From Chlamydiia bacterium (GTDB taxonomy: Bacteria > Chlamydiota > Chlamydiia > Chlamydiales > JAAKFR01), in contig CAWHBB010000003.1 of NCBI GenBank assembly GCA_963827485.1, positions 23,476 to 87,475 of the forward strand: a stretch of DNA of 64,000 bases, given 5' to 3'. Within the stretch, counting starts at the first letter, position 1. Each line of letters opens with the position of its first letter. The notes under the pieces are model-generated. The model was not told where the DNA came from. It saw nothing but the letters and a program-made list of their open reading frames with translations, and searched no databases. The position numbers were made by a program, and so were the translations under genes. Of the stretch, positions 50,423-51,740 are shown piece after piece.

Positions 50423-51740
50423 TGTCCCCCTTCAGCTTGATCGTGAAGGTGGATCCCTGCCCGACCTTGCTCTCTACCGAGAGGGTGCCGCCCTGGACCT
50501 GGATGGCGCGGTAGGTTTCAGCAAGCCCAAGACCGTGGCCGGAGCTCTTGGTTGTAAAACGGGGCGTGAAGAGCTTCTCGAGCTCGGCGCTCTCTAGGCC
50601 TCGGCCGCTATCTCTGACCGCGATCTCTGCACCTCCATCGCCATAGCGGATCTCCACATGGATCAAAGAGTGCTCAGAAGAGGCCTCAAGGCCGTTTTTG
50701 AGCAAATTGAAGAGGGCGAGCTTCAGAAGCTCGCTATCGACGCTGAGCTGCCTTGCCTCTCCCTTGATCGCGAGCTTGACCCGCTCTTTTTCCTGAGATG
50801 CCACCTCGAAATGGCAGATGACCTCTTTGACCAGCTCTTCGAGCTGGCAAGAGGAGGATTTGATCTTCGGAGTGGAGCAAAAATCAAGCGCATCGTTGAT
50901 GAGCCGCTCGATGAGCTCCGTACCCTCCAAAATGGAGCGCGCCTTCTGCCGCGCCTCCTTCTCCTTCAGCTCAAACGCGAGAAGGGTTGCAAAGCCGTCG
51001 ATCGCTGTCAGGGGATTGCGGATCTCGTGGACAAGGCTTGCCATCACATCGCCAAAACCGGAGAGCTTTCCTCTCTCGCATAGCGCTTCGCTCTTCTGGC
51101 TCGCCTCCTTTTTCAGCAAGATGAAAACGCCCCCTTTTTTGCCTCCAATTGGGCTCACAAGTAGCTCAAGGGGCTTTTGTAGCTTTGACTCCTGCTTCAA
51201 AAAAAGGCGCAAGGAGGCCCGTTTCTCCTTCAACATCTCGCTCATCGAAAAGCCGAAGAAGCCATCCTCGAAGATCTCGCTATACCGCTTGCCGACCACT
51301 ATCGGCTTGGCCCTCTCGATCATCTCCGAGGCAGTAGCGTTGCAGAGCAAGATCCGCCCCTCGCTATCGATGTAGAGAAGCCCGCCCGAAAAATGGGTCG
51401 CAAGAAGCGCAAGGGCCGCCTCTAGAGCCGCAACCCTCTCTTTTAGCTCAGCCGATTCATTTTCGATCCGAGGAGGTGGGGCCGCTTGAGGTAAAAAAGG
51501 GCCCTGGCACCTCTGGAAGAGCCTTTTTGAGAGGAGATGGAAGAATCGAAATAGACCTCTTGCGTAATTGGCTTTGGAGGCCAAAAGTGATGGATCTGCC
51601 CGTGGGTTCAGCAAAGCGCAAGTTGACATACTCGATTGAGAGTAGGCGACTTGTGCGCGGCTGAATTCCGTAGGATTCCCACGGGAAGAGGCGCGGTTTT
51701 GGCCCCAAATGGAATTATGCAAGAGGTCTAATAGAGCCAT
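50412..51740 (-). CDS. ctcB: PAS sensor histidine kinase (CtcB/AtoS-like) carrying an in-frame RE-B insertion after codon 4
   Basis: H-box ASLVHEIRNPL, N/G boxes (LLKNGLEA, DSGRGL, GHGLGL). The only canonical in-frame starts lie at 51740 or upstream, or inside the element. Confidence 0.7.
   Translation of the reverse strand: MALLDLLHNSIWGQNRASSRGNPTEFSRAQVAYSQSSMSTCALLNPRADPSLLASKANYARGLFRFFHLLSKRLFQRCQGPFLPQAAPPPRIENESAELKERVAALEAALALLATHFSGGLLYIDSEGRILLCNATASEMIERAKPIVVGKRYSEIFEDGFFGFSMSEMLKEKRASLRLFLKQESKLQKPLELLVSPIGGKKGGVFILLKKEASQKSEALCERGKLSGFGDVMASLVHEIRNPLTAIDGFATLLAFELKEKEARQKARSILEGTELIERLINDALDFCSTPKIKSSSCQLEELVKEVICHFEVASQEKERVKLAIKGEARQLSVDSELLKLALFNLLKNGLEASSEHSLIHVEIRYGDGGAEIAVRDSGRGLESAELEKLFTPRFTTKSSGHGLGLAETYRAIQVQGGTLSVESKVGQGSTFTIKLKGDNGP
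51552..51730. mobile_element. RE-B3: TA-flanked MITE-like element inside the kinase 5' coding region
   Basis: Same termini and interior as RE-B1. 179 bp including both TA dinucleotides. Confidence 0.75.

Follow-up and report, generated by a model that had tools for sequence, protein, structure and literature searches.

The 64,000-nucleotide stretch of Chlamydiia bacterium DNA under study (hereafter the window, to which all coordinates of the kinase and of the element copies B1, B2 and B3 refer) contains a gene for a sensor histidine kinase of the CtcB/AtoS/NtrB type that carries a MITE (miniature inverted-repeat transposable element) at its third and fourth codons. The reading frame that opens with the ATG at 51740 runs through this element, copy B3, without a stop and yields a protein of 442 residues in which HisKA and HATPase_c domains follow. 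A first-pass annotation had described an in-frame, stop-free MITE at the start of the kinase. That observation is real, and its interpretation is supported and essentially right once the duplication, the length of the insert and the family of the element are amended. The features of the interrupted gene are as follows.

50412–51740, minus strand: open reading frame (ORF; 442 residues plus stop) of a sensor histidine kinase of CtcB/AtoS/NtrB type, with N-terminal helices, PAS, HisKA and HATPase_c.

51738–51740, minus strand: ancestral start ATG of the kinase, 7 nt past the upstream gene's stop.

51730–51732, minus strand: upstream copy of the target-site duplication, which reads ATT in the coding direction and AAT on the plus strand and spans kinase codons 3 and 4.

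51553–51729, minus strand: the MITE proper, copy B3, 177 bp, AGACCTCTTG...CAAGAGGTCT, with a GC-rich palindromic interior.

51550–51552, minus strand: downstream copy of the target-site duplication (AAT/AAT flanking B3 on the plus strand).

51627–51629, minus strand: internal in-frame ATG (Met38) near the apex of the B3 hairpin, an alternative start.

51348–51350, minus strand: TTG at which the automatic gene call begins (312-residue product P0002), inside the PAS domain and implausible as a start.

The coding strand at B3 reads ...gcaTAAattctctATG GCT CTA TTA GAC CTC TTG CAT ... GCA AGA GGT CTA TTT CGA TTC..., in agreement with the earlier reading (ATG GCT CTA TTA GAC CTC ... GGT CTA TTT CGA). 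The window contains six matches to the 12-mer TAGACCTCTTGC, forming three inverted pairs (9659–9838, 36999–37162 and 51552–51730); 0.41 matches are expected by chance, and none of 100 shuffled sequences contained six. In B3 these terminal inverted repeats are perfect over 12 nt (TAGACCTCTTGC/GCAAGAGGTCTA), counting the T/A of the duplication. The RNA of B3 folds at −82.3 kcal/mol (z = −9.3 relative to shuffled sequences), and no Rfam family, terminator or promoter-like site was found in B3, the promoter scan also covering its surroundings. Shorter than 300 bp and lacking a transposase gene, with terminal inverted repeats, a target-site duplication, dispersed copies and an autonomous partner (described below), B3 is a MITE. 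Its sole open frame is the frame of the kinase.

The other two copies in the window are intergenic and represent two different subfamilies.

9659–9838: copy B1, intergenic, of the GC-rich subfamily like B3, with ATT/ATT duplications and a 1-nt indel.

36999–37162: copy B2, intergenic, of the AT-rich 164-bp subfamily, with AAT/AAT duplications and one open frame.

B1 is 92% identical to B3 over 166 nt and has stops in the frame that is open in B3. The TAA pointed out earlier in the equivalent frame of B1 (TTG CAC TAA) is indeed present, giving DLLH*.

The wider family was surveyed with a scan of one genome per species for two ends 135–165 nt apart, which returned at least 120 loci; 128 complete copies taken from the listed loci and the window form the basis of all family statistics. 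Perfect 12-nt ends TAGACCTCTTGC bound elements of 133–189 bp in L002–L121, the interiors of which fall into unrelated subfamilies, and the consensus of the terminal repeat reaches about 16–18 nt. Hosts among the matches listed include cyanobacteria (Nostoc, Anabaena, Microcoleus and Fischerella), Chlamydiae, Verrucomicrobia, Armatimonadetes, Firmicutes and Bacteroidetes, and further Chloroflexi, Acidobacteria, Patescibacteria, candidate phyla and a few proteobacteria. The host range of one transposase-recognition sequence is thus very wide. An exact scan of metagenome contigs for further copies of the GC-rich subfamily gave no match.

These copies define the target-site duplication. The bases just beyond the 'TA' of the ends are not random: T stands at the second outward position in 95% of ends, and A or T at the first in 88%. 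Read in threes, the flanks form direct repeats, the same on both sides in 104 of the 128 copies (ATT/ATT in 53, AAT/AAT in 41, AGT/AGT in eight and ACT/ACT in two) versus 27 of 128 for an adjacent-base control. The target-site duplication of the family is 3-bp ANT, represented in B3 by AAT/AAT on the plus strand, and not the TA proposed in the first-pass annotation. Because the duplication measures 3 bp, B3 proper extends from 51553 to 51729 and its insertion adds 180 bp, or 60 codons, where 59 had been counted; together with the duplicated triplet it makes up residues 4–63 of the kinase ORF. The rebuilt empty site reads ATG GCT CTA TTT CGA.. and encodes MALFRFFHLLSK, so the ancestral N-terminus is MALF.. 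and not MALLF...

No autonomous partner was found among the listed loci, where end pairs 600–3000 bp apart and solitary ends enclosed ordinary genes only. A BLAST search of plasmids with a Nostoc copy gave single-end matches adjoining genes annotated as IS5-family transposase. One of these regions (L122:1584–2539, plasmid NZ_CP040289.1 of Nostoc sp. C057) is a 956-bp insertion sequence (IS) whose 12-nt ends are perfect and identical to those of the MITEs and which is flanked by AAT/AAT; a second copy of this IS lies on plasmid NZ_CP040285.1. Its 276-residue transposase scores above the curated cut-offs of the NCBIfam model transpos_IS5_4 (NF033581; 182.2 bits, cut-off 140) and of DDE_Tnp_4 (PF13359; 84.8) and HTH_Tnp_4 (PF13613; 68.3). 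This Nostoc IS is likely to be the autonomous source of the MITE family. From the 3-bp duplication and the IS5-family partner it follows that B3 is an IS5-family MITE and not one of the TA-duplicating IS630/mariner type; an origin from IS630/Tc1-mariner (DDE_3) with a TA duplication was considered and rejected on the same two grounds. IS elements with HTH_Tnp_4/DDE_Tnp_4 transposases of the IS5 family are the bacterial relatives of PIF/Harbinger, the eukaryotic MITEs of which are the Tourist elements. The B3 family resembles MITEs derived from IS5-family elements in its ends, which are those of the 956-bp transpos_IS5_4 IS, in its 3-bp A/T-rich duplication, small size and hairpin and in its many copies, whereas its duplication is ANT and that of PIF/Harbinger is TWA.

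The ancestral form of the kinase gene can be read from a relative. The protein database holds one close relative of the kinase, P0003, encoded on a 7-kb Logan contig (locus L001) and 52% identical over 359 aligned residues (query 95–436). This comparison involves both genes that adjoin the kinase.

51748–52074, minus strand: upstream gene of 108 residues with no Pfam family, conserved at 40% identity in the relative and ending in a stop 7 nt short of the kinase ATG.

49250–50422, minus strand: response regulator/sigma-54 activator with Response_reg, Sigma54_activat (1.5e-68) and AAA lid, overlapping the 3′ end of the kinase by 11 nt.

L001 shares the gene order of the window: an ABC ATPase and an ABC-2 permease come first, followed by a small gene that falls in no family, the kinase and a sigma-54 response regulator. 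The small upstream genes of the two loci are homologous (E = 3e-20 at the identity given above), and the kinase ATG of L001 stands 6 nt past the stop of its small gene, compared with 7 nt for ATG 51740. The P0003 locus carries no element in the kinase. Its N-terminus, MELKEILSLFSK, aligns gap-free from M1 with M1 of the rebuilt empty site, MALFRFFHLLSK. Synteny, spacing and alignment alike support the earlier view that the codons upstream of the element (four by its count) belong to the gene. A near-identical empty-site allele was sought with an exact 24-mer across the rebuilt junction, which had no match in metagenome contigs. One end of the same MITE family occurs at L001:66–77, 77 nt from the contig edge; the relative thus hosts the family too, and its assembly probably broke at a copy.

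Downstream of B3, start codons are absent as far as the PAS domain. Over the 67 in-frame codons between B3 and the TTG at 51350 there is no ATG, GTG or TTG, as had been noted before, and also no CTG, ATT or ATA; three ATC codons are the only near relatives of a start. Since no usable start codon lies between B3 and the PAS domain, the sequence supports the view that translation must begin upstream of the element or inside it. An in-frame ATG inside it, at 51629, is present as described earlier, and the start at 51740 is the most likely real start of the kinase. No Shine–Dalgarno match was found before the kinase ATG, either in the window gene or in its orthologue, and none upstream of ATG 51629. 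The longest ORF would start at GTG 51818, a candidate rejected for its 70-nt overlap with the upstream gene and the lack of a counterpart in the orthologue. B3 seems to have misled the gene caller, in that the automatic call for the kinase (50412–51350) cuts the PAS domain short. The TTG at 51350 encodes residue 131, and the AlphaFold model places the PAS strands E120–125 and E129–133 at or before this residue; a start here removes the first PAS strands and would leave a broken sensor domain.

Apart from the insert, the kinase is intact. Pfam detects HisKA (PF00512, 2.9e-12) and HATPase_c (PF02518, 5.7e-21), and the protein retains all invariant columns of an alignment of 57 sequences, among them H238, N345, N349, G379, G401, G403 and G405 of the conserved H, N and G boxes. 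A Pfam search of the kinase itself gave no significant PAS match; a PAS-like α/β fold is modelled at residues 120–211 with a predicted local distance difference test score (pLDDT) above 90, and homologues carry PF00989. AlphaFold models PAS, DHp and CA domains that all exceed a pLDDT of 90, and the insert scores about 47–56, the same range as residues 1–50, which show no confident fold. A region search with kinase residues 4–63 for proteins elsewhere that contain the B3-encoded peptide yielded three word candidates and no match. Chlamydia NtrB/AtoS proteins are among the homologues, at 28–32% identity. No domain match to a DNA-binding domain was obtained in the response regulator at 49250–50422. 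By its domains, its PAS fold and its neighbour, the kinase belongs to the CtcB/AtoS/NtrB type paired with a sigma-54 activator. The sigma-54 regulon of chlamydiae is under the control of CtcB/CtcC-type systems.

Whether an open element in a gene is remarkable depends on how often the family is stop-free. Across the six-frame readings of the 128 copies, 46 of 768 lack a stop, in line with the one in ten to twenty estimated earlier. Of the six frames of B3, only the one that the kinase uses is open, and the odds of a single in-frame open insertion are about 1/6 given B3 and roughly 1/20 for the family. In a survey of genic insertions the empty site was rebuilt for each copy and tested for an interrupted ORF. 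Seven copies lie 2–15 codons past an in-frame ATG whose ORF runs on for 150 codons or more, and six of them keep the frame and have no stop (the window kinase, L010, L028, L045, L069:5950–6113 and L085; P = 1.3e-4 against a generous null of 1/6). Copies in other chlamydial genomes stand in frame 2 to 6 codons into genes. Mid-gene copies comprise one that is open (L012:4719–4897) and three that are disruptive (L025:1385–1567, L035:693–861 and L120:6458–6629), and in-frame genic insertions number seven. The L012 copy is 179 bp long and sits mid-gene in a 347-codon ORF from a Gomphosphaeria metagenome-assembled genome, where it is open and in frame. Those in L025, L035 and L120 break long ORFs out of frame, which suggests gene disruption.

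Element-free orthologues confirm two of the other insertions, in L085 and L069, as insertions into coding sequence. The FtsX/MacB-type permease of L085 (6262–7605, Parachlamydiaceae) reads MEL, followed by 54 element codons and FNKSYFF...HRLRSLLSTLGV, and its element-free orthologues have M and about 15 residues ahead of the same motif. These orthologues indicate a true start three codons ahead of the element, and the public annotation (NCBI P0122, 416 aa) begins at an ATG inside the MITE. The exported protein of L069 reads MT, the element and then INRNYLKLVLWTLISSTLLYG; its closest relative, without the element, begins MTMLRISKRF..LLLIYSTLYG.

The 164-bp subfamily, with members in L010, L016, L020, L028, L052, L069 and L085 as well as window copy B2 (36999–37162), has one frame (DLL..ARGL) that is stop-free in all nine diverged copies from six assemblies, intergenic ones included, and most of its other frames contain 1 to 7 stops, despite strong nucleotide divergence among copies. 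The peptide of this frame is conserved (DLLxN..F..NFS.IC.HM.SKF..K..QKS..FS.KA..ARGL) around a central CATATG. Cyanobacterial subfamilies are rich in stops. In a cluster of about 172 bp from bacteria of the Planctomycetes–Verrucomicrobia–Chlamydiae (PVC) group (L007, L024, L042, L050, L065, L078, L112 and L120), eight of 13 copies stop 0–3 nt short of a long ORF's ATG; with every copy counted, this applies to 14 of 256 ends, where the null is 0.9–1.4%. The outward end ..GCAAGAGGTCT of these PVC copies places GAGGT, a Shine–Dalgarno core, 4–7 nt from those ATGs, where it may replace a displaced ribosome-binding site; alternatively, a TAATG stop/start overlap at the end may permit coupling. The family as a whole is not neutral at the 5′ ends of genes, and its survival at gene starts is non-random.

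The history that best accounts for the kinase, to which we assign a probability of about 60%, is that a MITE inserted into a ctcB-like kinase gene in which ribosomes start at ATG 51740, read through the element and make the full-length kinase. A non-autonomous derivative of an IS5-family IS transposed into the ATT of codons 3 and 4 (CTA TTT), duplicating this triplet and adding 180 bp, exactly 60 codons, in the one stop-free frame of six. This event left intact both the ancestral ATG and its 7-nt distance from the upstream stop. The insertion with its frame, the ancestral start, the family of the element and the recurrence of such insertions are established, whereas use of ATG 51740, coupling, read-through and an effect on dose are inferred. 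Initiation would still take place at ATG 51740, probably coupled to translation of the 108-residue upstream gene, a likely partner for such coupling. Coupling is the natural model because neither the gene nor its orthologue has a Shine–Dalgarno sequence and both ATGs stand 6–7 nt past an upstream stop. Ribosomes reading through B3 would produce a kinase with intact PAS, DHp and catalytic domains and a poorly structured N-terminal insert of 60 residues. The very stable hairpin, which begins 10 nt past the ATG, would be expected to lower initiation. Opening the region from −15 to +15 around ATG 51740 costs 18.2 kcal/mol with B3 and 6.5 kcal/mol in the rebuilt empty site, and read-through is therefore expected at reduced efficiency. 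Because the start of the response regulator overlaps the 3′ end of the kinase, the amount of the regulator may shift as well; overall, the dose of both proteins would be altered and probably lowered, without being lost.

Several observations weigh against this history. The native segment just behind B3 (FRFFHLLSKRLFQRCQGPFLPQAAPPP) is poorly conserved relative to the coiled-coil motif of relatives, a divergence that could reflect relaxed constraint. The computed opening cost of 18 kcal/mol may make initiation at 51740 very inefficient. As B3 would be open with a chance of one in six under random orientation and phase, the single case could be luck, and the GC-rich subfamily is known from two copies only (B1 and B3). 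No RNA run was found in the search of sequencing runs, and no run matched the junction stretch. Searching with the body of the kinase gave four DNA runs with low-coverage contigs from soil and wetland; in one of them (X1, a soil metagenome) a 452-bp piece is identical to the kinase at a depth of about 4, with no contig across the junction, and the small contigs of these runs that match B3 sequence are other copies of the element.

Some of the same facts would also fit a gene that has been silenced and is dying, in which the insertion is real but the hairpin prevents initiation, too little kinase is made to be of use, the open frame arose by a one-in-six chance and decay is yet to come. The rise in opening cost from 6.5 to 18.2 kcal/mol, the opening of B3 in only one of six frames (a chance that is not negligible), the diverged native segment and the disruptive insertions of the same family in L025, L035 and L120 all agree with this, as do the perfect terminal repeats and duplication, which suggest a fairly young insertion. 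Silencing is nevertheless unlikely, for the catalytic and invariant residues are all intact over about 380 codons, the downstream response regulator is intact and overlaps the 3′ end of the kinase, and 5′-end insertions of the family are in frame and open far above chance, which is unexpected if insertions simply kill genes. Slightly less likely still is a start inside B3, at ATG 51629 (Met38) or at the TTG of codon 7, which would make the element a new 5′ leader plus an N-terminal extension of 26 to 57 residues and the ancestral ATG irrelevant. The in-frame ATG does lie near the hairpin apex, a central in-frame ATG (the CATATG core) is common in the 164-bp subfamily, and the NCBI annotation of the L085 permease uses an element-internal ATG. 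This ATG, however, has no Shine–Dalgarno match upstream, its opening cost of 19.3 kcal/mol is no better than that of the ancestral start, the scan in and near B3 found no promoter-like site, and the ancestral ATG retains its coupling distance to the upstream stop.

Translation from a non-canonical codon downstream of B3 or from TTG 51350, which would place the element in the 5′ untranslated region, is what the automatic call P0002 (312 aa) implies. It is very improbable given the 67 codons past B3 that offer no ATG, GTG, TTG, CTG, ATT or ATA in frame, the loss of the first two strands of the PAS fold from a TTG start, and the orthologue N-terminus that aligns with the four codons upstream of B3. 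An assembly artefact, in which a repeat-induced chimaeric join set the MITE between unrelated flanks, can be set aside almost entirely. Contigs of relatives do break at family copies, as the terminal repeat 77 nt from the end of the L001 contig illustrates, but both flanks of B3 are syntenic with a single locus of the relative and rejoin into a sensible N-terminus, and B3, in keeping with the rest of the family, is flanked by a 3-bp duplication without mismatch. An insertion that is read through from ATG 51740 therefore remains our preferred account of the kinase.

Two other repeats in the window are recorded here for completeness. Three tandem units of about 2.2 kb with 78–94% mutual identity occupy 40515–47083 and presumably form a paralogous gene array, and a second, unrelated short repeat family, 'RE-A', has three copies in the window (3486–3597, 35276–35386 and 62366–62474).

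The single kinase event is of moderate interest; the pattern of the family consists of a coding-compatible subfamily together with copies 0–3 nt before ATGs. A tentative suggestion, and on the whole a rather doubtful one, is that some lineages of the IS5-derived MITE family in Chlamydiae, and perhaps elsewhere in the PVC group, have become adapted to persisting at sites where translation starts. Within such a scheme the stop-free subfamily, read through a few codons past the ATG, may be the chlamydial counterpart of the Rickettsia palindromic elements; the subfamily 0–3 nt upstream of ATGs may offer, through its terminal repeat ..AAGAGGTCT, a Shine–Dalgarno-like GAGG at the right spacing; and the hairpin in the kinase may act as a built-in translational attenuator that resets the CtcB/CtcC dose. 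The 60-codon insert with its −82 kcal/mol hairpin is a natural experiment on the tolerance of the sigma-54 sensor to N-terminal change and on translational attenuation. For annotation, the same truncation, or a start set inside the element, affects other chlamydial genes that carry the family. That a single MITE family, present with the same ends in cyanobacteria, PVC bacteria, Firmicutes and candidate phyla, survives non-randomly at gene starts extends the picture of 'selfish DNA inside genes' beyond Rickettsia.

Among known systems, the MITE Nezha of Anabaena and Nostoc is described as an element of about 130–170 bp that is non-coding and intergenic (Zhou et al., 2008, after PMC3184786). As far as that description goes, Nezha resembles the B3 family in its length, its Nostocales hosts, its terminal inverted repeats and direct repeats, its A+T-rich targets and its stable hairpin, and differs in being described as non-coding and intergenic where B3 is genic; the comparison is one of descriptions only. 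Repeats of the ERIC, BOX and Anabaena MITE types are small and lengthen genomic ORFs, or join them in frame, at the 5′ or 3′ end (Delihas, 2011, PMC3184786; Croucher et al., 2011, PMC3049150), and in-frame residence in genes is rarer for them than for the Rickettsia palindromic elements (PMC10969869, PMC3184786, PMC3049150). Most of these cases are end extensions made by the repeat, whereas B3 lies inside ancestral coding sequence, between codon 3 and the rest. No papers on such elements in Chlamydiae were found in the searchable literature, which is no proof of absence, and a literature search with the terminal-repeat sequence returned unrelated primers only.

The closest parallel is provided by the Rickettsia palindromic elements, which are well known to reside in frame inside genes (Ogata et al., 2000, 2002, after PMC10969869 and PMC3184786). 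The analogy, drawn already in the first-pass annotation, holds at the level of the family, with the L085 and L069 insertions as two further cases backed by element-free orthologues. Both groups are palindromic repeats of about 150–180 bp that reside in obligate intracellular lineages, in frame inside protein-coding genes, and whose insertions are tolerated by the host protein, and the conserved open frame of the Rickettsia elements is matched by that of the 164-bp chlamydial subfamily. The B3 family differs in belonging to another element family in another phylum, the likeness being functional only; its terminal inverted repeats are clear, it makes a 3-bp duplication, and an autonomous partner from the IS5 family can be named for it. 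Its insertions cluster in the first few codons, whereas those of Rickettsia are found on surface loops throughout proteins. For B3, translation of the insert is a prediction from the sequence. By analogy, B3 would function like a Rickettsia palindromic element but derives from an unrelated, IS5-derived family.

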